18,974 nucleotides of DNA, from IMG/VR virus record IMGVR_UViG_3300036876_000145, positions 83,489 to 102,462 of that record. One strand, 5' to 3'. A program made the translations under genes and the position numbers. Shown one piece after another: positions 898 through 18,974 of this stretch. Origin of the DNA: a virus. Taxonomy: Duplodnaviria; Heunggongvirae; Uroviricota; Caudoviricetes. The notes beneath the pieces are model-generated. The model ran no database searches, was not told the DNA's origin, and saw only the letters and a list, made by a program, of their open reading frames with translations. Every line of letters begins with the position of its first letter. Positions within the stretch are counted from its first letter, which is position 1.

Positions 898-2124
898 GTG
901 AGGAAACCGTTTTGCGTGCTGTGCATTTTCGCGCTCTGTCTTGAATCTGCTATGATGAGAAAAAAGAAGAGAACACCAGCCAAAGAATCTGCCCCGAAGT
1001 CTGTTCATATGGCTTTCAGAAGCAAGGAATTTGCAGGCATTCAGGCGGCTCTTGGCCGTCATCTGTGCCTGTCGTCCGCTAACGCACTCGTAGCGCAGGG
1101 CGATTCGCTGGAAATACTCCGCCAGCTGCCTAACCAATCCATCTCGCTCATTTTGACCGATCCGCCGTACCACTCAACGAAGAAGGACAACATTTACGGC
1201 GACACTTCGTTTGGGCATGACCAACACTATATTGAATGGATGACGCAGTACGCGAAGGAGTGGCGTCGCGTGCTGCGGCCCAACGGCTCGTTATATTGCT
1301 TCTGTGCTTCTGAGATGGCTGCACGCCTTGAAGTCATGCTCGCTAAGGATTTCAATATTCTCTCCAGCATCACGTGGACGAAGCCCAACGACCCTGGCTT
1401 CGACGGTTGGAAGGGCAAGATGAAGAAGGAATCCCTCCGGCAGTGGTATCCGCATTCGGAGCGAATCATCTTTGCAGAGATCGCGGTAGAGGGCAACCTG
1501 CACCGTTCTCCGTTTGGAGACTTTCTGCGAGCGACCAGGAAAAACGTGAACATGAGTGCTCACGAACTGGCTGGGTTGATCGGTGCGTATGGGAATGTCA
1601 ACCACGGTGGAGCGGTCTGCAATTGGGAAGCTGGGCGTAACATCCCGAGCCGGGAACAATATCGCAGAATCTGCGAGGCGATACTCACCACTGGCAAGAT
1701 GAAGTCGATGCCGCCATACGAAGACGCCGTTCGCCCGTTCTTCATGGACGGCTCAAAAGAATTCACTGACGTCTGGAATTTTCCATCTGTCCGTCCATAC
1801 AAAGGCAAGCACCCTGCTGAGAAACCTGCGTCCCTTCTGGAACACGTGATTGGGGCGTCATCATATCAAGGCGACATTGTGCTGGATTGTTTTGCAGGGT
1901 CAGGAAGTACGGCCTTGGCTGCTCTTAAACTAAACCGCCGCGCAGTCGCTATAGAGATTGATCCCCAGTGGGCTTCTGAGGTTGCAGCTCGGGTTCGGGC
2001 TTGTGGTGCGGAGAGTGCGGTCGCAGAATTGAAGGAGCACGACGCCAGAGTGATCCACGCTCCCAAGCTCAACCCGAAGGTGCCTCAATACGCGCTATCA
2101 TTTGACGGCAACGGTCGTGAGTAG
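898..2124 (+). CDS. orphan DNA methyltransferase, beta-class N6-adenine/N4-cytosine type (DPPY motif IV precedes FAGSGST motif I)
   Basis: The translation contains LILTDPPYH (motif IV) and later VLDCFAGSGSTALAA (motif I, AdoMet binding), the beta-class order. No restriction endonuclease partner is visible. The start is uncertain: the track gives GTG 898, with in-frame GTG 916 (GAGGAA SD about 10 nt upstream) and ATG 952 as alternatives. GC content is higher than in the neighbouring genes. Confidence 0.85.
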   Translation: MRKPFCVLCIFALCLESAMMRKKKRTPAKESAPKSVHMAFRSKEFAGIQAALGRHLCLSSANALVAQGDSLEILRQLPNQSISLILTDPPYHSTKKDNIYGDTSFGHDQHYIEWMTQYAKEWRRVLRPNGSLYCFCASEMAARLEVMLAKDFNILSSITWTKPNDPGFDGWKGKMKKESLRQWYPHSERIIFAEIAVEGNLHRSPFGDFLRATRKNVNMSAHELAGLIGAYGNVNHGGAVCNWEAGRNIPSREQYRRICEAILTTGKMKSMPPYEDAVRPFFMDGSKEFTDVWNFPSVRPYKGKHPAEKPASLLEHVIGASSYQGDIVLDCFAGSGSTALAALKLNRRAVAIEIDPQWASEVAARVRACGAESAVAELKEHDARVIHAPKLNPKVPQYALSFDGNGRE

Positions 2125-2415
2125 ATAACCAGCCTTTTGGTTGCGTTCCAATACGGACTGCATCCACTCGACTGTCTTCTGTATTCCTGAATCTTTCACT
2201 ACCACGTTGCAGTGATGGTGCCCCTCCTCCGAAGACGGCCAAGCAACACATAAAACTCGAACACCGCATCGATAGCTTTTTGCGCGTATTCAGGAACACT
2301 TTTGTCCTCATAGGACTTCAAGCATTCGATCTCAACCTCGCGGTTGATGTTAGGGTTGACATAATGCGCCAGACTCCAAGCTTTCTAGAAAGTTTTGTTA
2401 GCCATAAAATTTTTC

Positions 2416-2444
2416 TTGACAATAAGTCAAAGTTTTAGTAATAT
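2416..2444 (+). promoter_or_regulatory. sigma70-like promoter: TTGACA (2416-2421), 17-nt spacer, TAATAT (2439-2444). The -35 lies inside the inverted repeat TTGAC-aataa-GTCAA.
   Basis: Near-consensus -35 and -10 hexamers with ideal 17-bp spacing, about 20 nt upstream of the ATG at 2463. The palindrome TTGACAATAAGTCAA overlapping the -35 is operator-like. Confidence 0.55.
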
Positions 2445-2462
2445 CAGTATTAAGGTATAGAG

Positions 2463-2570
2463 ATGAATAAGATTCACACCAACTCGAACGCAGTCTGTAC
2501 GGAACACGGTACTGTCGCCGCTGCTGCGGCGGTAGGAGATACTGTGTCCTCGGATGGTTGGGACGGTTAA
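2463..2570 (+). CDS. 35-aa peptide (MNKIHTNSNAVCTEHGTVAAAAAVGDTVSSDGWDG); it could instead be an incidental ORF within a small RNA
   Basis: ATG at 2463 has AAGGT 7 nt upstream and TAA at 2568-2570. It sits exactly between a strong promoter and an intrinsic terminator, so the whole transcript is about 170 nt. Confidence 0.35.
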   Translation: MNKIHTNSNAVCTEHGTVAAAAAVGDTVSSDGWDG

Positions 2571-2595
2571 ATAACTCAACCTAAAAGATTCCGAG

Positions 2596-2629
2596 GACGC
2601 CATCAAAAAATGGCGTCTTTTTTGTTTTG
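2596..2629 (+). terminator. rho-independent terminator: GACGCCAT-caaaaa-ATGGCGTC stem-loop followed by TTTTTTGTTTTG
   Basis: Perfect 8-bp GC-rich stem, 6-nt loop and a 12-nt T-rich tract read directly from the sequence. Confidence 0.7.
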
Positions 2630-2639
2630 CGGTGAATGT

Positions 2640-2718
2640 ATTCCGATGGCGTGAGCGGCGAAACCACTTGCCCTACAAGCAAGTATCATCGGGGGTTCGA
2701 GTCCCTCTCGGAATACCA
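2640..2718 (+). tRNA. tRNA-Val(UAC)-like with aberrant D-arm and C33
   Basis: Perfect 7-bp acceptor (ATTCCGA/TCGGAAT), A73 and an encoded CCA. T-arm is GGGGG-TTCGAGT-CCCTC. Anticodon stem is CTTGC/GCAAG with loop CCTACAA, giving anticodon TAC. No convincing 4-bp D-stem could be found in 2649-2665. Confidence 0.45.
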
Positions 2719-2729
2719 AATTTTAATGT

Positions 2730-2804
2730 GTGGGTGTCGTCCAATGGGAGGACTTTCGGTTTGCACCCGGAGAATGCGAGTTCGAGTCTCGTCACTCTAC
2801 ACCA
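2730..2804 (+). tRNA. tRNA-Ala(UGC)
   Basis: Acceptor GTGGGTG has the G3:U70 Ala identity pair. D-stem is GTCC/GGAC. Anticodon stem is TTCGG/CCGGA with loop TTTGCAC. The T-loop is TTCGAGT and CCA is encoded. There are two mismatches at the base of the acceptor and one extra nt before the discriminator. Confidence 0.55.
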
Positions 2805-2896
2805 AATGTGCCGTCCGCGACGGTGATAGATACCAGAAAGCTCTTCGGAGCGCTGGAATGGGGATCAGCCCCTTAGTCATCGCGGCTAAATTTATA

Positions 2897-2970
2897 AGCG
2901 GATTAGCCAAGTGGTTAAAGGCATCTGCCTGCAAAGCAGACAAGCACGGGTTCGAATCCCGTATCCGCTT
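2897..2970 (+). tRNA. tRNA-Cys(GCA)
   Basis: Perfect 7-bp acceptor (AGCGGAT/ATCCGCT) with a U73 discriminator, as expected for Cys. Anticodon stem is TCTGC/GCAGA with loop CTGCAAA. T-arm is ACGGG-TTCGAAT-CCCGT. CCA is not encoded. Confidence 0.75.
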
Positions 2971-2979
2971 CCCAAATTT

Positions 2980-3056
2980 GGGGGTATAGTTCCAACTGGT
3001 AGAACAGCGGCTTGTCGCGCCGATGGTTGCGGGTTCGAATCCCGTTACCCCCGCCA
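2980..3056 (+). tRNA. tRNA-Asp(GUC) variant (anticodon loop TTGTCGC with G37)
   Basis: Acceptor is GGGGGTA/TACCCCC with G73 and encoded CCA. D-stem is GTTC/GAAC. The anticodon stem has 4 bp plus a G:A mismatch, and the anticodon is GTC. T-arm is GCGGG-TTCGAAT-CCCGT. Confidence 0.55.
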
Positions 3057-3060
3057 GTTT

Positions 3061-3138
3061 GGTGTGTTGGAGGAGTCTGGTCTTCCTCGCTTCCCTGTCA
3101 CGGAAGATATCACACGGGTTCAAATCCCGTACACACCG
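3061..3138 (+). tRNA. tRNA-Asp(GUC)
   Basis: Acceptor is GGTGTGT/ACACACC with G73. Anticodon stem is CTTCC/GGAAG with the canonical Asp loop CTGTCAC. T-arm is ACGGG-TTCAAAT-CCCGT. CCA is not encoded. Confidence 0.75.
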
Positions 3139-3147
3139 CTTTCGTGA

Positions 3148-3179
3148 CTTCCTGAGTATTAAGTAGAGTACTCAGGAAG
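3148..3179 (+). promoter_or_regulatory. 11-bp perfect inverted repeat (CTTCCTGAGTA ... TACTCAGGAAG) sequestering the SD of the GIY-YIG gene
   Basis: The 3' arm contains the AGGAAGG Shine-Dalgarno, and the ATG at 3184 lies 4 nt after the stem. The loop is TTAAGTAGAG. No T-tract follows, so this is not an intrinsic terminator. Confidence 0.5.
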
Positions 3180-3183
3180 GTTC

Positions 3184-3834
3184 ATGATGAAATACACAGT
3201 CTACAAAACTGTGAATCTGGTCAACGGCAAGTTCTACATCGGTGTCCACAAGACGGACAATCCGAATGATGACTACCTTGGTTCTGGGAAGTTCATCAAA
3301 CGAGCCGTTGCGAAGTACGGAGAGCAGAATTTTCGCAAGGAAATTTTGGCTGTCTTTGAAATCCAGAGAGAAGCTTTCGATCTCGAAAAGAAACTCGTGG
3401 TTGAAGCGAAAGTTGATCCACTGTGTTACAACCTGAAAGCTGGCGGTGAAGGTGGGTTTGACTGGATCAATCGTAAGGGATTGAATAACTCGAACGAGAA
3501 CGGCGTGAAAGGAAATCGGGTTACAATTGGAAAAATAAAAACTGACCCAAAGGTAAAGAAGCGATTTACTGACAGGATCAATCGAGTTAGACAGTATCGT
3601 ACTCAAGACTACAAAGCTCGAATTCCTTCGATGTTACAAAAGTGGACAGGACAGCATCATACCGCCGAGACAAAGGCTAGACTTAGCGAAACGCATAAAG
3701 GTAAGAGCAACGGACGCTTTGGAAAACAGTGGATGTATCATCTCGAATCGCAGAGATCAAAGCCTGTCTCACCGGACGAGATCAATAGCCACATTGAACA
3801 AGGTTGGTTGATTGGTCGCCGGATGAAATTTTAG
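3184..3834 (+). CDS. GIY-YIG homing endonuclease (Seg/I-TevI-like) with a C-terminal NUMOD3-like repeat
   Basis: The N-terminus YTVYKTVNLVNGKFYIGV carries the GIY..YIG motif with downstream R and E residues. The C-terminal TGQHHTAETKARLSETHKGKSNGRFGKQW resembles NUMOD3 DNA-binding repeats. The gene sits inside the tRNA array. Confidence 0.85.
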   Translation: MMKYTVYKTVNLVNGKFYIGVHKTDNPNDDYLGSGKFIKRAVAKYGEQNFRKEILAVFEIQREAFDLEKKLVVEAKVDPLCYNLKAGGEGGFDWINRKGLNNSNENGVKGNRVTIGKIKTDPKVKKRFTDRINRVRQYRTQDYKARIPSMLQKWTGQHHTAETKARLSETHKGKSNGRFGKQWMYHLESQRSKPVSPDEINSHIEQGWLIGRRMKF

Positions 3835-3841
3835 GAGAGAC

Positions 3842-4054
3842 GTGAAGATTCTCTACGATGAACAGCGGCATCTGATCACGGTGCCGTACTCGAAAGAGAA
3901 TCTACATGAAGCAGCGCGGCAGTTGGGTATTAAGCGTTGCTGGTTTCACAAAGACCACTACGACGTTCCTAAGAGAATGATGTCTCGGATGTCGGAGACG
4001 GTAGCAGAAAAAGTTTCGCCGCGTGAAGTTTTGAAGATCGTGCGCGGCAAGTAA
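3842..4054 (+). CDS. DUF4031-like small phage protein (70 aa, HYDVP motif)
   Basis: GTG start with a GGAGAGA SD. The sequence MKILYDEQRHLITVPYSKENLHEAARQLGIKRCWFHKDHYDVPKRMMSR matches my recollection of the DUF4031 pattern (..A..lGl.r.Wfq...HYDl). The family assignment is from memory, not from a search. Confidence 0.55.
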   Translation: MKILYDEQRHLITVPYSKENLHEAARQLGIKRCWFHKDHYDVPKRMMSRMSETVAEKVSPREVLKIVRGK

Positions 4055-4058
4055 GTTT

Positions 4059-4135
4059 GGATGGATAGCCAAGTAGGAAAGGCGCTCCCCTGCAAAGGGA
4101 GTCATGCGGGGGTTCAATTCCCTCTCCATCCTCCA
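4059..4135 (+). tRNA. tRNA-Cys(GCA), second divergent copy
   Basis: Perfect acceptor GGATGGA/TCCATCC with U73 and encoded CCA. Anticodon stem is CTCCC/GGGAG with loop CTGCAAA. T-arm is GGGGG-TTCAATT-CCCTC. Confidence 0.75.
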
Positions 4136-4530
4136 AATGTACCAGTTCGGGACAACCGCTGGCAGGAAGTTTCTGCGGGAGGGAAAGTTCGGGGCTTCAT
4201 AGAGTACCGTGCGGGGTAACTCCCCGGCGACGGCGCAAGCCGTTGACAATTAGAGCTACAGAGACGAGTCACAGAAGGTGTGCTTGGAAGCGCGTAAGAT
4301 TCACGTCGGTAGTGTTGATGTGAAATGCCCGACCAAGTCCCCTGATGTGGGTGAAACGAGCAATCTTCACGGGAAGCAAGTGCAAATAGGCTGACAGGAA
4401 CTACTCGTTCCGTTATGAATCAGCGGGTAGCATGCTTGAGCGTTGGAGTAATTCAACGCCTAGACGAATGGTTGTCGCCGCGCAAGCGGAACAGAACCCC
4501 GGCTAATAGGACTGGTACAAGTTTATGAGT
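4136..4530 (+). other. about 395-nt noncoding, GC-rich, hairpin-dense region (candidate structured RNA or long leader) between tRNA-Cys and the HNH gene
   Basis: There is no plausible ORF on either strand apart from a spurious minus-strand ORF overlapping the tRNA. Local stems are present, for example GGGGTAACTCCCC and GCGCAAGC. Confidence 0.25.
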
Positions 4531-4542
4531 TTTTGAACTATG

Positions 4543-4568
4543 AGCGACCTATATTAGAGAGGTCGCTC
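4543..4568 (+). promoter_or_regulatory. 8-bp inverted repeat (GAGCGACC ... GGTCGCTC) placing the HNH SD/start at the loop/3'-arm junction
   Basis: The loop is TATATTAGAG. The SD GAGAGG (4557-4562) straddles the loop and 3' arm. The GTG at 4569 immediately follows the stem. Confidence 0.45.
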
Positions 4569-5006
4569 GTGACAAGTCAAAAAGAAGTTCAAAGACAATT
4601 AGGAATGAGTCGAGGAACCGCCAACTACAGATTGGCGCGTCTTTTACTCTTCAAATACATGCAGCAAGCTGGGGCGGACAACTGTTTTCGCTGCGGTCTA
4701 AAGCTTGAAACGGTTGAAGATTTTAGTATTGAGCATAAAAAACCGTGGTTGTACGCATCCCCAGATTTATATTGGGATTTGGAAAATATTGCTTTTTCGC
4801 ATCGCGCATGTAATTCGGGCGCAGCTAGACAGATCAATAAGACCAAAATGAGTCTTAGATCAGTAGGACCGGAAGGAACAAGTTGGTGTACGGAACATAA
4901 ACAGTTTCTTTCAGTCGATGAATTTCAAAAAAATTCCGCTATTTGGAACGGCTTACAAAGGCAATGCAAAGAATGCCGACAAAAGCGAAATAAAAAGCGG
5001 GCTTAG
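4569..5006 (+). CDS. HNH homing endonuclease (HNH_3-like)
   Basis: CFRCG...EHKKPW...HRACN is an HNH motif. The preferred start is GTG 4569, which has GAGAGG 6 nt upstream; the track's longest ORF starts at TTG 4533. The last 10 nt overlap the 5' end of tRNA-Gly. Confidence 0.8.
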   Translation: MTSQKEVQRQLGMSRGTANYRLARLLLFKYMQQAGADNCFRCGLKLETVEDFSIEHKKPWLYASPDLYWDLENIAFSHRACNSGAARQINKTKMSLRSVGPEGTSWCTEHKQFLSVDEFQKNSAIWNGLQRQCKECRQKRNKKRA

Positions 5007-5073
5007 CTCACGCTGGTAGAGCGCTGGTCTTCCAAACCGGAGGTAACGGGATCGTCGCCCGTAGTCCGCTCCA
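4997..5073 (+). tRNA. tRNA-Gly(UCC) with an unusual T-loop (ATCGTCG)
   Basis: Acceptor is GCGGGCT/AGTCCGC (one G:U pair) with U73 and encoded CCA. D-stem is GCTC/GAGC. Anticodon stem is CTGGT/ACCGG with loop CTTCCAA. Confidence 0.65.
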
Positions 5074-5084
5074 AGTTTAGATAT

Positions 5085-5160
5085 GGCGCACTCTGCTAAC
5101 GGCTAGGCAACCACGTTCTCAGCGTGTGAAATGTGGGTTCAAATCCCGCGTGCGCTACCA
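5085..5160 (+). tRNA. tRNA-Glu(CUC)
   Basis: Acceptor is GGCGCAC/GTGCGCT with A73 and encoded CCA. D-stem is TGCT/GGCA. Anticodon stem is CCACG/CGTGT (4 bp) with loop TTCTCAG. T-arm is GTGGG-TTCAAAT-CCCGC. Confidence 0.6.
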
Positions 5161-5167
5161 GATTTTG

Positions 5168-5224
5168 GCTGACCATGTTCGGCAAGGTCAGCGGTTGGGG
5201 GACATGGCTCAGTACAACCGCTGA
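5168..5224 (+). other. pair of mutually exclusive hairpins (GCTGACC/GGTCAGC 7 bp; TCAGCGGTTG/CAACCGCTGA 10 bp) in a tRNA spacer
   Basis: The 3' arm of hairpin 1 (5186-5192) overlaps the 5' arm of hairpin 2 (5189-5198). The segment is not tRNA-like. Confidence 0.4.
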
Positions 5225-5231
5225 TAACCGT

Positions 5232-5307
5232 GGGGCTATGGCGCAGTTGGGAGCGCGTAATCATGGCATGATTAAGGCCGTCGGTTCGAACCCGACTAGC
5301 TCCACCA
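5232..5307 (+). tRNA. tRNA-Ala(GGC)
   Basis: Acceptor GGGGCTA/TAGCTCC has G3:U70, with A73 and encoded CCA. D-stem is GCGC/GCGC. Anticodon stem is TAATC/GATTA with loop ATGGCAT. T-arm is GTCGG-TTCGAAC-CCGAC. Confidence 0.75.
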
Positions 5308-5313
5308 GATTTT

Positions 5314-5388
5314 GCGGAAGTAGTTCAGCGGTAGAATATTTCCTTGCCAAGGAAGGGGTCGCGGGTTCAAATCCCGCCTTCCGCTCCA
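5314..5388 (+). tRNA. tRNA-Gly(GCC)
   Basis: Acceptor is GCGGAAG/CTTCCGC with U73 and encoded CCA. Anticodon stem is TTTCC/GGAAG with loop TTGCCAA. T-arm is GCGGG-TTCAAAT-CCCGC. Confidence 0.8.
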
Positions 5389-5399
5389 AGTTTAGAAGT

Positions 5400-5461
5400 T
5401 CATGGATGCCTAGATGTCGGTGGCTAACCGAAAGGTCGCGGGTTCAATGTCCGTTCCATGT
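5400..5461 (+). pseudogene. 62-nt tRNA-like element lacking a D-arm (pseudo-tRNA or armless tRNA)
   Basis: There is a 6-bp acceptor-like closing stem (CATGGA/TCCATG), an anticodon-like hairpin GTCGG-TGGCTAA-CCGAA, and a T-arm-like GCGGG-TTCAATG-TCCGT. Only 9 nt lie between the acceptor and the anticodon stem. There is no spacer before the next tRNA. Confidence 0.35.
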
Positions 5462-5537
5462 GGGGCTATAGCGCAGTTGGGAGCGCGTCTCGTTCGCAAC
5501 GAGAAGGTCGTGAGTTCGAATCTCACTAGCTCCACCA
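5462..5537 (+). tRNA. tRNA-Ala(CGC)
   Basis: Acceptor GGGGCTA/TAGCTCC has G3:U70, with A73 and encoded CCA. Anticodon stem is TCTCG/CGAGA with loop TTCGCAA. T-arm is GTGAG-TTCGAAT-CTCAC. Confidence 0.75.
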
Positions 5538-5544
5538 AGTTATT

Positions 5545-5617
5545 GCGGGTGTAGTTCAATGGTAGAATATTCGGTTCCCAACCGAAAGATTTGTCGGTTC
5601 GAGTCCGACCATCCGCT
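5545..5617 (+). tRNA. tRNA-Gly(CCC)
   Basis: Acceptor is GCGGGTG/CATCCGC with U73; CCA is not encoded. Anticodon stem is TTCGG/CCGAA with loop TTCCCAA. T-arm is GTCGG-TTCGAGT-CCGAC. Confidence 0.75.
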
Positions 5618-5624
5618 CCGTTTT

Positions 5625-5768
5625 ATGAGAGAGTGTCCAAAGTGCGGTAAGAAAGAACAATGGGAAATCGGTTGGATTTCTACTACCAATGAATGGCGCT
5701 GGCATTGTCTGTCTTGTGATATTCGTTTTAATGATGATGGCGTAATTTACACACCAGAAAAAGTTTAG
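5625..5768 (+). CDS. 47-aa zinc-ribbon protein (CPKCG ... CLSCD)
   Basis: ATG at 5625 is in frame with the track ORF 5559-5768, whose upstream part overlaps tRNA-Gly and is rejected. Two CxxC pairs are present: MRECPKCGKKEQWEIGWISTTNEWRWHCLSCDIRFNDDGVIYTPEKV. The SD is weak. Confidence 0.4.
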   Translation: MRECPKCGKKEQWEIGWISTTNEWRWHCLSCDIRFNDDGVIYTPEKV

Positions 5769-5791
5769 GGCCGTGGGACTGCATTGGGGTG

Positions 5792-5819
5792 GTTCGAATC
5801 TCACTAGCTCCACCAAGTT
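5792..5819 (+). repeat. 28-bp exact direct repeat of the 3' end of tRNA-Ala(CGC) (5514-5541), giving a 3' tRNA fragment with no 5' half
   Basis: GTTCGAATCTCACTAGCTCCACCAAGTT is identical at both sites. The upstream sequence at the second site cannot form a T-stem or an acceptor. Confidence 0.6.
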
Positions 5820-5822
5820 TAC

Positions 5823-5926
5823 GTAGGCTTCCGAGGGATACCTCGGTGACAGTTGTTCTGAGGTCATCTCTTCATGAGGGGCTGAACAGGGAACGGCAGC
5901 GTGGGGAAACCCACAAGCCTACACCA
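5823..5926 (+). ncRNA. 104-nt structured RNA of unknown class, closed by the 8-bp stem GTAGGCTT/AAGCCTAC and ending in ACCA
   Basis: The internal hairpins are perfect: CCGAGG-GATA-CCTCGG (6 bp, 4-nt loop) and GTGGG-GAAA-CCCAC (GNRA tetraloop). Its position in the array and its A-CCA end are tRNA-like, but there is no 7-nt T-loop. Confidence 0.35.
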
Positions 5927-5929
5927 TTT

Positions 5930-6005
5930 GCGCTGTTAGATTAGCGGTAAAATCGTCACCATGACAAGGTGAAAATCGGGGGTTCGATTCCCTCACGGCG
6001 CACCA
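5930..6005 (+). tRNA. tRNA-Val(GAC)
   Basis: Acceptor is GCGCTGT/ACGGCGC with A73 and encoded CCA. D-stem is GATT/AATC. Anticodon stem is TCACC/GGTGA with loop ATGACAA. T-arm is GGGGG-TTCGATT-CCCTC. Confidence 0.75.
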
Positions 6006-6017
6006 GTTTTTAAATAT

Positions 6018-6095
6018 GGCGTTGTCTTCTAAATGGTCTAGGAAAACTGACTTTCAATCAGTGGAATGCCGGTTCAACTCCGGTCAACGCTACCA
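6018..6095 (+). tRNA. tRNA-Glu(UUC)
   Basis: Acceptor is GGCGTTG/CAACGCT with A73 and encoded CCA. Anticodon stem is ACTGA/TCAGT with loop CTTTCAA. T-arm is GCCGG-TTCAACT-CCGGT. Confidence 0.75.
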
Positions 6096-6102
6096 GAATT
6101 GA

Positions 6103-6177
6103 GAGGGAGTAGCTCAGCGGTAGAGCAGAATATTGCCAATATTCAGGTCGCGGGTTCAACTCCCGTCTCCCTCTCCA
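6103..6177 (+). tRNA. tRNA-Gly(GCC), second copy
   Basis: Acceptor is GAGGGAG/CTCCCTC with U73 and encoded CCA. D-stem is GCTC/GAGC. Anticodon stem is GAATA/TATTC with loop TTGCCAA. T-arm is GCGGG-TTCAACT-CCCGT. Confidence 0.75.
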
Positions 6178-6372
6178 ACATTTATGCGAATCTATTCAAA
6201 AGTTTATTTTCGCTTTATGGTGTGTTATGAGAAAACTAAAGAGACTAAGCAAGGTCAAACTCGTGAAGGAAATGTCCAGGGAGAGGGTGCCAGTCCCCGC
6301 GACCCGCAAGATTGAAAATAAGAAAAAGAAATTTTTGCGTTACTTAGAAACACATTGGCAGGAAGATGAATT

Positions 6373-6448
6373 GGGGGTATAGCTCAGCTGGGAGAGCGCA
6401 TCGTTTGCAACGATGAGGTCGTCGGTTCGATCCCGTCTACCTCCACCA
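6373..6448 (+). tRNA. tRNA-Ala(UGC), bacterial-type (5' end GGGGGTATAGCTCAGCTGGGAGAGCGC)
   Basis: Acceptor GGGGGTA/TACCTCC has G3:U70, with A73 and encoded CCA. Anticodon stem is CATCG/CGATG with loop TTTGCAA. The T-loop is TTCGATC. Confidence 0.8.
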
Positions 6449-15300: not shown

Positions 15301-16226
15301 TTAAACAGTTCAAAGTTCCTGTACAACTAGAGTCAGTAACATTTGCTACTTTACCATCATCCCCAGCGAATGGCATGGAAGTATATTGTTCTGATTGTAC
15401 TTTTGGATCAAACCCCTGTACAGGTAGTGGCACAGGATCTTTTGCATATCGAGTTAATGGCGCGTGGGTTTGTAGCGATTCGAGTGGGTCCGGTGGAGTA
15501 AACGCCACTAATTCACCATCACAATATGCTGTAACTACTTGGGTAAACAGCACTACTATTGAAGGCATTGCGCCATCTTCTACAAGTGGGTATCCTTTAT
15601 TATCTAATGGTTCATCTGCGTATGCTTCTTTTGGGCAACTCTCAGTCGGAGCAATTAGTGCCACGGGCACACCGTCTTCCACCACTTATTTGAGGGGAGA
15701 TGGTAGCTGGGCTACTGTATCTGGTAGTGGGACAGTTACTTCTGTAGCGATGACCGTACCAGCCTGGTTATCCGTGAGCGGGTCTCCTATAACCGGCACT
15801 GGTACGCTTGCCATCACTTCAGCGGGGAGTTTGACCCAAAACTGGGTCTTAGCTACTCCTAATGGCAGCAGCGGTGTATTAGCTCCTCGTGCCTTGGTAG
15901 CGGCGGACATTCCAACTTTAGGAGTAAGTACCGTTAGTTTTTCAGCAACGCCAATTTTCAACGCTACTGGTTATAGCGGATTCAAAATAACTCTGACCGG
16001 TAATGTTACCAGCTCCACATTCACAAATGGGACGGCAGGAAGTCTTTACACTTTTGAGATCACGCAGGACGGAACAGGTGGTCGGACATTTGTCTGGCCC
16101 GCTAATTTTAAAGGCGGCGCAAGTGTGACAGATCAGGCCGCAGGATCCAACGAGACAATAGCACAGTTATTTTATTTTGACGGCAGCAATGCACTTGCTG
16201 TTGGTCCAGGAATGGTGACCCCATAA
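12357..16226 (+). CDS. tail fibre protein 2 (1289 aa)
   Basis: ATG has an AAGGAAA RBS, 9 nt after the previous stop. The composition is highly G/S/T/N/A-rich. Its C-terminal region repeats the module found in fibre 1 ([13 protein letters not shown]...[25 protein letters not shown]). Confidence 0.85.
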
Positions 16227-18974
16227 TGTCAATTCGCATTTACTTTCTCGCTTTAATTATTGCACTAACATCTTTGGCTGGTGCGCAAAATATTACCGGT
16301 AACAGTTTGACACTCTCGCCTACTTTGACCGTAGGTACACTTCCATCAGCAGCAACCAATAAGGGGCGCACGTTTTCTATCAGTGACGGATTAAATTCTA
16401 CCGACTGTACTGTTGGCGGAGGAACTAACCATGTATGGTGCTGGTCAAATGGAACTATCTACGCAGTGCCGTTTGGGTCGGCAGCAGGGGGCGTCACTTC
16501 CATTAATACCGTAGCCGGGGCGTTTACATTCAGCGGACCTGGGGTAACTTGTACAAGCACGGCTTGCACATTTTCCGGTACAGGAGTATCTTCTGTTTCG
16601 AACAGCGATGGAACTCTGACGATATCTCCCAACACAGGAGCAGTCGCAGTTTCGCTTGCTTTAAGTCATGCTAACACATGGACAAATCAGACGATTGACG
16701 GGGTGACCCCAACCACTTTTGGCTTCGTCGATCCCACGTCTAGTATTCAGACGCAGTTGAATGCCAAGGCTAACTCCAGCGTGACTACTCTTTCTTCGTT
16801 GATTGCGGCTGCTGGGGGTACGTTTGGGACGTGTGCGTTTGTGAATACTTGTGGTTCGGGAGGAACGTATAGCGCGGTTACTTCTCCGATTACGGCATCT
16901 AGCAGCACGCTCCAGTTTTCCGCGTCTCTGCTGAACTACGGTGGCAACGGAAATGGGACTTCAGACAACTCCACGGCCATGACTTCAGCGTGCGCCGCGA
17001 ACTCAGAAGTCTGGTTGCCTGCTGGGGCGTATGCGTTCACATCGAACTATGCCGTGTCGTGCGGGCTTCACTTCGGCGCTGGGGCAACGCTTGTAGCCCC
17101 GACTGGAGTAACGGTTACAGTCAATGGCAAGATCGACGCTCCCACTGTGCCAATATTTACTGTAGCTGGAACCGGGAAGTTTCTTATCGGTCCAGGAACT
17201 CCTGTCGATTACGCGGAGTGGTTTGGAGCGAAGGGCGATAACTCAACCGACGATACAATTCCTATCACATCCTGCGCCAACAATTTTACCAAATCAGGGT
17301 TGTGCCAGCTTCTTGGGAAGTCCTATAAAACAACAAACGTCATCATTCTTAGCACCAGCTATACAGGGCTGATAGGAGTAGATTCGGGGCAGACACAAGG
17401 GCCACAGCCCACTGGTTCGGGATACTCCCAGATCAATAACAATAGCGCTACATCGGACATCATCGACATAAGCGGGAGTGGGATTTTGCCTTACGGTGTA
17501 ACGGTGAAAAACCTTACCTTGGCCAAATCCGTTGCAGCCACAAACGCAGGTGCGAATGGGCTATATCTGGGAACTGGGTTCTGGCATTTTGTTGATAACA
17601 TCAATATTTGGGACGCGCCCAATGGAGTGACTGTCGGTGCCTCTGCTACCGTGATAGTGACGAACGTCAACGTCAACTGGTCCTCTCTCTGTTGCTCAGT
17701 GCCCGTCGTAGGGTTCAACTTGAACGGACCTTCGAATGTCTTCTCTAATATCTTCGCAGAGAGGGAAGGTTCCAGTGCGAGTGCCACCGGTTTTGCAATG
17801 GCAGCGGGAGGTACCGGACTGAGCGACGTATGGGTGAATAACGCTCAGGCTGATTTCGTCGGGACAGGGTTCTTGATCGACGTAACTGCGTGTGTGGCCG
17901 CTGATCCTAGCAACGAATGTGCAACGGACATTCACATTACCAATCCTATTATCAATGTGAGCAATACAGGGTTTAGTTTTGTGAACTTGAACTCGGCCAC
18001 TGGTCCCCAAGGGCCGTCAGTCGATATCGTCGGGGGTTCGTTCCTGGAAAGCTCCGGTAACGCGTTTACCTTCACTAACTCCACCACAGGGTACAACATC
18101 GAGCACTTTAACAGTCAGGCAGGTGGTGTTAACACTTTCATCAATCGGACCATGCCGTCTGCGTTCTTCTCCATACCAGTATGTAGCGCGAGCTATGAAG
18201 GGTCGTATGAATCGTTTAATGATTCCGCGACGAATACACAAGGAGCAACGATCACGGGCAGCGGAACGAATCATGTGCTCGGGTACTGCAACGGAACGAA
18301 CTGGGTAGTAGCCTCGGGGAGCGGCAGTGGGAGCAGCGGACTATCTGGCATGACAGCTACACAGATCCCGATTGCTGCCTCATCCTCGACCGTAACTAGT
18401 TCCGTACCAGCACCCACAGGCACAATTGTAGGGACAACCGATACCCAAACTCTCACGAATAAGACATTGGACGGTGTATCCCCAACAACATTTGGATATG
18501 TTGACCCTACTTCCAGTATCCAGACGCAGTTGAACGCCAAGCAAGGGACGCTCACAGGCACCGGGTTGGCTCGCAACACCGGAGCATCCTCGGAACTGAG
18601 CGGCGACTGCGCCACCAGCGGATCAAACGCTATCGTCTGTACGAAGACGAACGGGACGGCTTTCGGCACTGGAGCTACGGCTACCATCGCCAACTACGCC
18701 CTGCTGACCGGAGCGACCTTCAGTGGTGCGATCTCCGCCGCCGGGATCACGAACTCATCCGTATCCAGCGCCGGTTGTGCGACGTTCAGTTCTGGTGGAG
18801 TTCTGACCAGCACAGGAACGGCTTGCGGTAGCGGATCTGGTGGCGATACGATCACATCACCCAACAGCACGCTTTCCGTGGGTGGAACTTCTGCGGCAAC
18901 AACGCTCGATCTCAACCTTGGCCACGCGAACACCTGGACGGCGACTCAGACTTTTCCGAATGGGTCGATCACGT
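16226..18974 (+). CDS. tailspike or depolymerase-like protein, 3' partial; it has a pectate-lyase-type beta-helix motif and an N-terminal hydrophobic segment
   Basis: The ATG overlaps the previous stop (ATAATG). The ORF is open to the window end. [17 protein letters not shown] matches the pectate_lyase_3/tailspike N-cap motif. The N-terminus [21 protein letters not shown] is signal-peptide-like. The module HANTWT..QT...[18 protein letters not shown] is repeated internally. GC content is higher than in fibres 1 and 2. Confidence 0.8.

Follow-up and report, generated by a model that had tools for sequence, protein, structure and literature searches.

We analysed an 18,974-nucleotide (nt) stretch of a Caudoviricetes phage genome (positions 83,489 to 102,462 of IMG/VR record IMGVR_UViG_3300036876_000145; hereafter, the window) and found, at 2416–2629, a compact unit that very probably (about 85%, in our estimate) acts as a ribosome-mediated leader-peptide transcription attenuator, gating a phage array of transfer RNA (tRNA) and ribonuclease P (RNase P) RNA genes. 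We observed the anatomy of such a device, alternative RNA pairings around its terminator, a match between the codons of its leader and the tRNAs of the array, and recurrence of the same layout with swapped codon blocks in other phages. An earlier note on this DNA had described a near-consensus promoter, an open reading frame (ORF) for a 35-residue peptide and a strong intrinsic terminator, all of which are present. What it lacked was the context that explains them: the tRNA array starting 10 nt past the terminator, the antiterminator alternative and the correspondence between leader codons and tRNAs.

A leader, a terminator and a tRNA array

The proposed attenuator is composed of the following features:

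2416–2444, plus strand: sigma-70-type promoter, with −35 TTGACA at 2416–2421, a 17-nt spacer and −10 TAATAT at 2439–2444
2452–2455, plus strand: Shine–Dalgarno-like AAGG, 7 nt 5′ of the ATG, a putative ribosome-binding site
2463–2570, plus strand: leader ORF of 35 codons, predicted to encode MNKIHTNSNAVCTEHGTVAAAAAVGDTVSSDGWDG
2490–2531, plus strand: proposed sensing block inside the leader ORF, codons 10–23, AVCTEHGTVAAAAA
2493–2511, plus strand: region 1, codons 11–17, paired with region 2 in the full-length minimum-free-energy fold (anti-antiterminator)
2512–2535, plus strand: inner hairpin of the Ala-codon run at the tip of 1:2 (2512–2521 with 2526–2535)
2540–2555, plus strand: region 2, in the last third of the leader ORF, pairing with region 1 or region 3
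2590–2603, plus strand: region 3, containing the terminator 5′ arm (2593–2603) and overlapping the antiterminator partner (2590–2600)
2610–2629, plus strand: region 4, the terminator 3′ arm (2610–2620) and the U-tract to 2629
2593–2629, plus strand: intrinsic terminator, an 11-base-pair (bp) stem (2593–2603 with 2610–2620) and a T-run to 2629

The promoter agrees with the consensus at 10 of 12 positions, is the best plus-strand match in the window and is the only plus-strand promoter-like site between 2416 and 6984; transcription would start near 2451. The terminator likewise ranks first among the terminator-like sites of the window, although neither kind of site is enriched there as a class (32 promoter-like sites versus 28.6 expected, and 21 terminator-like sites versus 17.1). 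Gene callers annotated the leader ORF in two of seven strain assemblies (L012 and L018) and also in L244 and L245, and the 35-residue peptide has no Pfam or PHROGs match. These seven independent assemblies of the window phage are at least 99.7% identical and do not differ over 2100–2720, apart from a 1-nt deletion in strain L017 that falls in the A-run of the terminator loop at 2605 and leaves both stems intact.

Behind the terminator lies the unit that we propose to be regulated:

2640–6448, plus strand: 16 tRNA genes, an RNase P RNA gene and three protein genes (ARAGORN, Rfam)
3184–3834, plus strand: GIY-YIG gene (SegE-like, NUMOD3), homing-endonuclease-like
3842–4054, plus strand: DUF4031 gene
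4139–4522, plus strand: RNase P RNA, bacterial class A (169 bits)
4533–5006, plus strand: HNH homing-endonuclease-like gene

The first gene of the array is a tRNA-Val at 2640, 10 nt past the T-run of the terminator. Altogether the tRNAs comprise two for Val, four for Ala, four for Gly and two each for Glu, Asp and Cys, so that, besides Cys, the array serves the amino acids of the GNN codons alone (Val, Ala, Asp, Glu and Gly). Because no other plus-strand promoter-like site precedes 6984, the array must be transcribed through the terminator at 2593–2629. No further tRNA genes were found within 10 kb upstream and 11 kb downstream of it (to ~17766; ~25 kb examined), the upstream 10 kb containing protein genes alone. 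Within the array, a 95-nt gap (2800–2896) separates a tRNA-Ala from a tRNA-Cys.

The leader RNA can fold in two ways. At full length (2450–2632), its minimum free energy is −61.3 kcal/mol (z-score −3.7 versus shuffles), and this fold contains 1:2 together with the terminator hairpin 3:4. When the terminator 3′ arm is left out, 2544–2554 pairs instead with 2590–2600, forming an 11-bp antiterminator that uses most of the terminator 5′ arm and includes a 9-nt perfect inverted repeat (GTCCTCGGA/TCCGAGGAC). This 2:3 duplex has an energy of −21.4 kcal/mol, whereas dinucleotide-shuffled leaders give −14.2 ± 2.4 kcal/mol (p = 0.012). Region 2 stops 15 nt short of the last base of the stop codon; a ribosome completing the ORF would therefore cover region 2 or sit in the 2:3 loop, whereas one stalled at codons 10–23 is predicted to cover region 1 and leave region 2 free.

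The codons of the leader fit the tRNAs of the array. Under strict wobble rules, array tRNAs read 19 of the 35 leader codons. The leader contains all four Ala codons and both Asp codons, together with three for Val, two for Gly and one each for Glu and Cys. Within the sensing block they read 11 of 14 (binomial p = 7e-4 against a background of 0.33 taken from the phage's own proteins), with the block having been delimited after the fold was seen. Taken alone, the codon match in the window is suggestive.

The unit thus has every part of a leader-peptide attenuator that can be sought in sequence. It has a short promoter-proximal ORF with a start codon and a putative ribosome-binding site 5′ of the genes to be regulated; enrichment of that ORF in codons cognate to their function (in the window and in sets of 19–23 leaders, described below); a terminator between the leader ORF and the first tRNA at 2640; an antiterminator that uses the terminator 5′ arm and excludes the terminator; and a 1:2 pairing over the regulatory codons with a stop codon placed to block 2:3.

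From this arrangement, we infer translation of the leader, ribosome stalling, the efficiency of termination and the direction and physiological trigger of regulation. Host RNA polymerase would start at the sigma-70-type promoter, and a ribosome would load on the 35-codon ORF. As long as block 10–23, with its codons for Ala, Val, Gly, Glu and Cys, is decoded quickly, the ribosome would run over region 2 to the stop codon; with region 2 masked, the 3:4 terminator would form and transcription would end at ~2625, yielding an RNA of ~175 nt. If a cognate charged tRNA were scarce, the ribosome would stall on region 1. Possible sources of such scarcity, all speculative, are depletion or cleavage of host tRNAs, host shut-off, a tRNA-targeting defence or the codon demand of the AT-richer phage. 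With region 1 covered, region 2 would pair with region 3, the antiterminator would pre-empt the terminator, and the polymerase would read on into an array encoding exactly those decoders. RNase P could then separate the leader from the first tRNA, which begins 10 nt past the terminator. The outcome would be a negative feedback loop on decoding capacity, through the supply of decoders.

Alternation of terminator and antiterminator would also suit a translation-independent element, riboswitch-like or attenuated by a bound protein or tRNA (T-box-like or TRAP-like), in which the ORF is incidental; direct tRNA sensing would even be a logical sensor for a tRNA operon. We regard this as very improbable. 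A cmscan search of 2100–2700 at E ≤ 10 returned only two sub-threshold, unrelated matches, with no T-box (RF00230), no leader family (Trp, His, Leu or Thr) and no other Rfam family, and a scan of the window and six related loci at gathering thresholds returned tRNA and RNase P RNA only. Moreover, the leader is short, with ~130 nt ahead of the terminator, and the ORF, its frame and a cognate codon block are kept across otherwise differing leaders.

Leaders with swapped codon blocks in other phages

Loci were collected from IMG/VR and JGI metagenomes through homologues of the array's GIY-YIG gene (35–54% identity), and prevalence cannot be read from a set reached through this one anchor gene. 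The homologues sit in tRNA arrays of other phages, in which the tRNA genes are strikingly grouped by class of amino acid, and a promoter–ORF–terminator unit stands directly ahead of most, but not all, of these arrays. The classes seen (L028–L035, L163–L224 and L239) are GNN plus Cys; Tyr/Leu/Pro/Met/Phe; Trp/His/Arg/Gln/Asn/Lys; Ile/Thr/Gln/Cys; and Leu/Cys/Ser/Tyr, and one 162-kb contig holds at least three different ones. RNase P RNA recurs in the GNN plus Cys arrays of two other phages (L216, 8164–8561, 162 bits; L033, 5732–6106, 141 bits), where it stands downstream of the same kind of leader as in the window. A literature search found no description of a phage-encoded RNase P RNA.

Leaders were identified by eye and by an automatic screen, which sought a short ORF followed by a terminator no more than 75 nt upstream of a tRNA. 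The window layout recurs in 18 other distinct leaders, from metagenomic phages and the cultured jumbo phage Tunturi_5 (PP885688.1; L239), ahead of at least five array classes. What a leader is rich in tracks the array behind it: V/A/G/E/D/C goes with GNN plus Cys, L/S/Y/C with Leu/Ser/Tyr/Cys, R/K/N/Q/H/W with Trp/His/Arg/Gln/Asn/Lys and T/I/Q/C with Ile/Thr/Gln/Cys, as in the following pairs:

L033: leader MSIKTPISTTTVAAVAVVGVVAAAEAGCAGEDTMPLEVFG; array Val/Gly/Ala/Glu/Cys/Asp
L215/216: leader containing ...GVVGVVVAVAAAEAGCAGED...; array Val/Gly/Ala/Cys/Asp/Glu
L110: leader MRFLLSSSRYCLSSLLRAGSPYLDKGI; array Leu/Cys/Ser/Tyr
L029b/165/207: leader MTYTKRNSAKNQRWHRNSDTSGGLIIV; array Trp/His/Arg/Gln/Asn/Lys
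L189/190: leader MRQHKQWQRNQHAIGGLDSGGSA; array Arg/Met/Trp/Gln/His/Asn/Lys
L177/214: leader MKQTLQTSITITCTQTGGGGSLRE; array Ile/Thr/Thr/Thr/Gln/Cys
L187: leader MSQQHQTRTTTQTQITGHSGFVSDGWYD; array Ile/Thr/Gln
Tunturi_5, leader 1: MKTLCLSSYCLSSSLSLSDGWDLRTGRDADMI; array Leu/Cys/Leu/Leu/Tyr/Leu/Ser/Ser/Ser
Tunturi_5, leader 2: MQHVSTFRFAVPATAGNPAGQQGTNACDTGGGKVVKW; array Gln/Gly/Thr/Pro/His/Ala/Phe, first tRNA unclassified, possibly Asn

The two leader–terminator units of Tunturi_5 lie at 231156–231313 and 239222–239391 of its record, corresponding to 16157–16313 and 24223–24392 of L239. The GenBank entry annotates neither leaders nor tRNAs in this stretch. An unclassified tRNA (L239, 24477) opens the second Tunturi_5 array. 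Elsewhere in the set, one tRNA that stands among Pro tRNAs is given a four-base anticodon (gttg) by ARAGORN (L168, 17088), and an uncalled tRNA-like stretch follows the terminator of a Ser array (L029, 840–960).

Among 23 unique automatic hits, the fraction of leader residues belonging to the leader's own array was 0.407, compared with 0.251 ± 0.026 for permuted pairings (p < 1e-5); none of 100,000 permuted leader/array pairings reached 0.407, with false positives and truncated arrays included. In a curated set of 19 leaders, for which leaders and ORF start codons were picked by hand, enrichment was 2.05-fold for the leader's own amino-acid set versus 0.99-fold for the sets of other leaders (Fisher combined p = 2e-29). 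The RNA fold recurs as well. Antiterminator pairing exceeded that of dinucleotide shuffles in 15 distinct leaders, the window and 14 others (Fisher p = 1e-12); in every case the upstream arm comes from the 3′ end of the ORF and pairs with the terminator 5′ arm, and a switch between the full-length and truncated folds was seen in nearly all leaders.

A generic terminator-tail pattern searched in IMG/VR matched mostly ordinary terminators, with three matches adjacent to tRNAs: the new leader of L110, one on the contig of L032 (L091) and an ordinary terminator (L069). No such unit was found in three cultured phages with mixed, unsorted arrays, Roseobacter phage DSS3P8, Stenotrophomonas phage DLP_6 and Erwinia phage pEp_SNUABM_01.

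The leaders of the window, L184 and L178 align as DNA, which allowed their codon blocks to be compared directly. The alignment spans the promoter, the ribosome-binding site, the ATG with the codons just after it and, at the 3′ end, the segment for ...SSDGWDG, from which region 2 is formed. All three promoters have CTTGACA and TAnTAT, and the AGG of the Shine–Dalgarno-like motif is retained at the same position. The middle blocks differ, with NAVCTEHGTVAAAAAVGDTV (A/V/G) in the window and IARKGASQWRNNRHFGVG (R/K/N/W/H/Q) in L178, and in all three each block fits its own array, which is GNN plus Cys in L184 and Trp/His/Arg/Asn/Lys/Gln in L178, on a 436-kb contig. Between the window and L184, the net difference in ORF length is a multiple of 3, so that the frame is retained; the inner hairpin at 2512–2535 is also conserved in L184, with one-sided changes. 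A ...SDGW(D/Y) tail is found in the leader of L187 and in leader 1 of Tunturi_5 as well. Exchange of the block within a conserved scaffold is difficult to account for without translation of the ORF and a sensing role for the block.

This exchange also bears on whether the unit might be an independent small gene or RNA, in which the 35-residue peptide or the ~175-nt RNA is itself functional (as a toxin, a regulator or a modified-peptide precursor), the terminator merely ends that gene, and expression of the array relies on passive read-through or on a phage promoter that escaped recognition. The unit does have its own promoter, ORF and strong terminator, its ORF is annotated as a protein in some assemblies, and attenuator RNAs can act in trans, as is reported for rnTrpL (PMC6614838). 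We nevertheless consider this unlikely, because the central block is replaced, not conserved, in homologous leaders and always fits the downstream tRNAs, because the peptide matches no known family in the two databases searched, because the conserved antiterminator overlapping the terminator is left unexplained, and because the 10 nt before the first tRNA are too short for a promoter. Of the products considered in the earlier note, the leader peptide is therefore the one that the evidence supports; a small RNA, toxin or modified-peptide precursor fits poorly with a peptide whose middle varies with the downstream tRNAs.

Several observations weigh against attenuation as we propose it. No leader can be recognised ahead of some arrays, such as the one at 9769 in L168 and the third of Tunturi_5, and some class-B leaders are Ser-rich though the fetched part of the array holds no tRNA-Ser. 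For the window alone, enrichment over the whole ORF is modest (19/34, p = 0.006; background 0.33), and its sensing block was defined post hoc. The window leader also contains Thr, His, Ser and Asn codons for which the array has no matching tRNA, as well as Asp codons that fall within region 2 or beyond it, at places where a stalled ribosome would not be expected to promote read-through. Were transcription to start near 2451, the AAGG motif would fall at the extreme 5′ end of the RNA. Because the region is identical in the seven assemblies, it offers no within-lineage covariation, and a two-sequence consensus fold with L184 shows only that the antiterminator is invariant. Finally, extra tRNA would not relieve stalling caused by amino-acid starvation, which leaves the physiological signal uncertain.

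Gene relics and palindromes upstream of the promoter

On the minus strand upstream of the promoter, the earlier note had described a protein-like frame interrupted at codon 7 by an amber codon. A 68-codon frame with a single in-frame TAG does exist there; its ATG is the complement of 2403–2405 (not 2402–2404, as first given) and the TAG is the complement of 2385–2387. It ends at 2199 and hence does not overlap the methyltransferase gene, which ends at 2124; the overlap belongs to another minus-strand frame, at 2098–2223. As the seven assemblies agree over 2100–2720, neither the TAG nor the change of frame is a sequencing error. The features of this stretch, together with an inverted repeat at the promoter, are:

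2098–2223, minus strand: C-terminal relic of a BstXI-family restriction endonuclease gene, in a different frame from the 128-bp fragment and overlapping the methyltransferase 3′ end; like that fragment, outside the switch
2256–2383, minus strand: 128-bp gene fragment, from the 3′ part of a gene for a 141-residue HExxH-motif protein; not part of the switch
2381–2392, strand not applicable: perfect 12-bp palindrome CTTTCTAGAAAG, at the junction of the 128-bp transferred fragment
2416–2430, strand not applicable: inverted repeat TTGACAATAAGTCAA, overlapping the −35 element

The protein-like part of the antisense frame is supplied by the 128-bp fragment, which is identical at 127 of 128 positions (99.2%) to codons ~94–136 of the HExxH gene on L026 and L027 (10281–10408), two phage-like contigs that are otherwise unrelated. 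This homology stops at 2383, 1–2 nt from the TAG and within the palindrome CTTTCTAGAAAG. The fragment has the look of a mosaic exchange that happened very recently, with its left junction close ahead of the promoter of the tRNA array. Further along, 2098–2223 encodes GHHHCNVVVKDSGIQKTVEWMQSVLERN, which is 64% identical to residues 290–317 of a 329-residue endonuclease (tblastn E = 2e-11). In Terriglobales genomes, this BstXI-family enzyme is encoded convergently to, and overlapping, the orthologous methyltransferase gene. No intact endonuclease gene (PF09552) was found adjoining the window methyltransferase; as only ~40 C-terminal endonuclease codons remain, the methyltransferase is an orphan. 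IMG/VR phage contig L001 carries a similar methyltransferase with an endonuclease relic. A single restriction-endonuclease pseudogene spanning the whole antisense frame was considered and rejected, given that only 2098–2223 is endonuclease-like and 2256–2383 has another origin.

The possibility that the antisense frame is a real gene, with its amber codon read by a suppressor tRNA or under an alternative code, seems to us extremely improbable, even though 68 codons contain only one stop, the phage is rich in tRNAs and the TAG is fixed in all seven assemblies. None of the 16 array tRNAs is a suppressor, and the long ORFs of the window are intact under code 11. The earlier note had suggested looking for relatives that carry the frame without the TAG; the single homologue (P0121) aligns only downstream of the TAG, over the last third of the 141-residue protein. 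The 99% DNA identity covers exactly 128 bp, the 'MANKTF' stretch between ATG and TAG has no homologue, and the tail of the frame enters the separate endonuclease relic, which is in another frame. The antisense frame is thus not a gene but joins the ATG-to-TAG stretch, the 128-bp fragment and the endonuclease relic. The interval 2098–2405 consists of the remains of two gene 3′ ends beside an orphan methyltransferase, not of an amber-recoded gene.

The palindromes that had been called operator-like, TTGACAATAAGTCAA and CTTTCTAGAAAG, are both present, but no evidence for an operator role emerged. If they were operators for a phage or host repressor of the promoter, the overlap of one inverted repeat with the −35 element would make sense, and such a repressor layer could coexist with attenuation. 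However, perfect 12-bp palindromes occur in the window at chance frequency (4 versus 4.7 ± 2.0 in shuffles), neither sequence recurs there, and the homologous promoters of L184 and L178 preserve neither, their −35 and −10 hexamers alone being invariant. The 12-bp palindrome also lies on the recombination junction. We therefore hold operators to be very unlikely. Inverted repeats of the form 5-N5-5 number 31 in the window, versus ~19 in shuffles.

The methyltransferase also offers a hint about the host. Its gene (898–2124) shares 80% DNA identity with a segment of a Terriglobales (Acidobacteriota) genome, which points to an acidobacterial host. The GC content of the phage is ~42–45%, compared with ~54% in the host-derived methyltransferase. 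Exact window proteins are present on many peat and bog metagenome contigs. We found no similar cultured phage: neither megablast nor blastn matched the region to any of 50,697 phage records, and tblastn of the neighbouring 1289-residue protein gave marginal matches only. An exact 21-mer of the window leader was not found in IMG/VR. Loci anchored on the methyltransferase, the metallophosphatase or a 136-residue ORF shared only that gene with the window and contained no tRNA arrays.

Known attenuators and the supply of phage tRNAs

The trp, his and leu attenuators combine a short ORF, regulatory codons and 1:2, 2:3 and 3:4 hairpins, with the same stall-and-mask geometry as proposed here, and multivalent sensing has precedents in ilv, which senses Ile, Leu and Val, and thr, which senses Thr and Ile. 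Like trpL, hisL, leuL, thrL, ilvL and pheL of Enterobacteria, the window unit has a promoter-proximal ORF with a codon block, three alternative hairpins and a stop codon that would mask region 2. It differs from these amino-acid operon attenuators in that its targets are tRNAs and RNase P RNA rather than biosynthetic enzymes, that its output would raise the supply of decoders rather than of amino acids, that it is encoded by a phage, and that its block, which covers five or six amino acids, is swapped as a module from array to array.

A closer parallel is the pheST attenuator of E. coli, in which the pheM leader controls a component of the translation apparatus by cognate decoding. The window unit would likewise couple decoding of cognate codons to genes of the translation apparatus, although pheST is a chromosomal aminoacyl-tRNA synthetase mRNA responding to a single amino acid, whereas the genes behind the window leader are those of the tRNAs themselves. 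T-box riboswitches bind uncharged tRNA directly, without translation, through conserved Stem I, specifier and T-box motifs. They, too, choose between terminator and antiterminator according to the state of a specific tRNA pool and so control translation-related genes, but sensing in the window would go through a translating ribosome, and no match to a T-box motif was found. As in the tRNA clusters of T4, T5 and jumbo phages such as Tunturi_5, the tRNAs of the window are interspersed with homing endonuclease genes. Searches of the literature returned no account of a regulatory leader for such clusters, yet Tunturi_5 carries the same kind of putative leader as the window.

Full-text literature searches returned no description of leader-peptide or attenuation control of tRNA operons, arrays or clusters, or of such control in phages, and the paper on the Tunturi phages does not mention leaders or attenuation. 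To our knowledge, and in the searchable literature, these would be the first tRNA genes under ribosome-mediated attenuation. The mechanism itself would be classical; new would be its target (tRNA and RNase P RNA genes), its phage setting and its modular block of many amino acids. On balance, we think that soil and peat phages associated with Acidobacteriota probably harbour an undescribed system of class-sorted tRNA arrays, most of those seen here gated by their own modular attenuator, whose codon block would sense how fast the very codons served by that array are decoded, with RNase P RNA gated in those of the GNN plus Cys class.

The reasons for which phages carry tRNAs, and the ways in which they control them, have long been debated; phage tRNAs have been proposed to compensate for codon usage, to replace degraded host tRNAs and to evade anticodon nucleases. 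If the attenuator works as we propose, the phage would have codon-specific sensors that turn on substitute tRNAs when these are needed, perhaps in answer to the depletion of host tRNAs or to defence systems that cleave tRNAs. Tunturi_5 and its host Tunturiibacter psychrotolerans provide a cultured setting in which the design is present, unannotated, and the idea is directly testable. Biosensors for particular codons or tRNAs could also be engineered on this natural model, in which the ends of the scaffold are constant and the block can be swapped. For the phages themselves, such control would argue that they treat tRNA supply as a regulated, demand-driven function.

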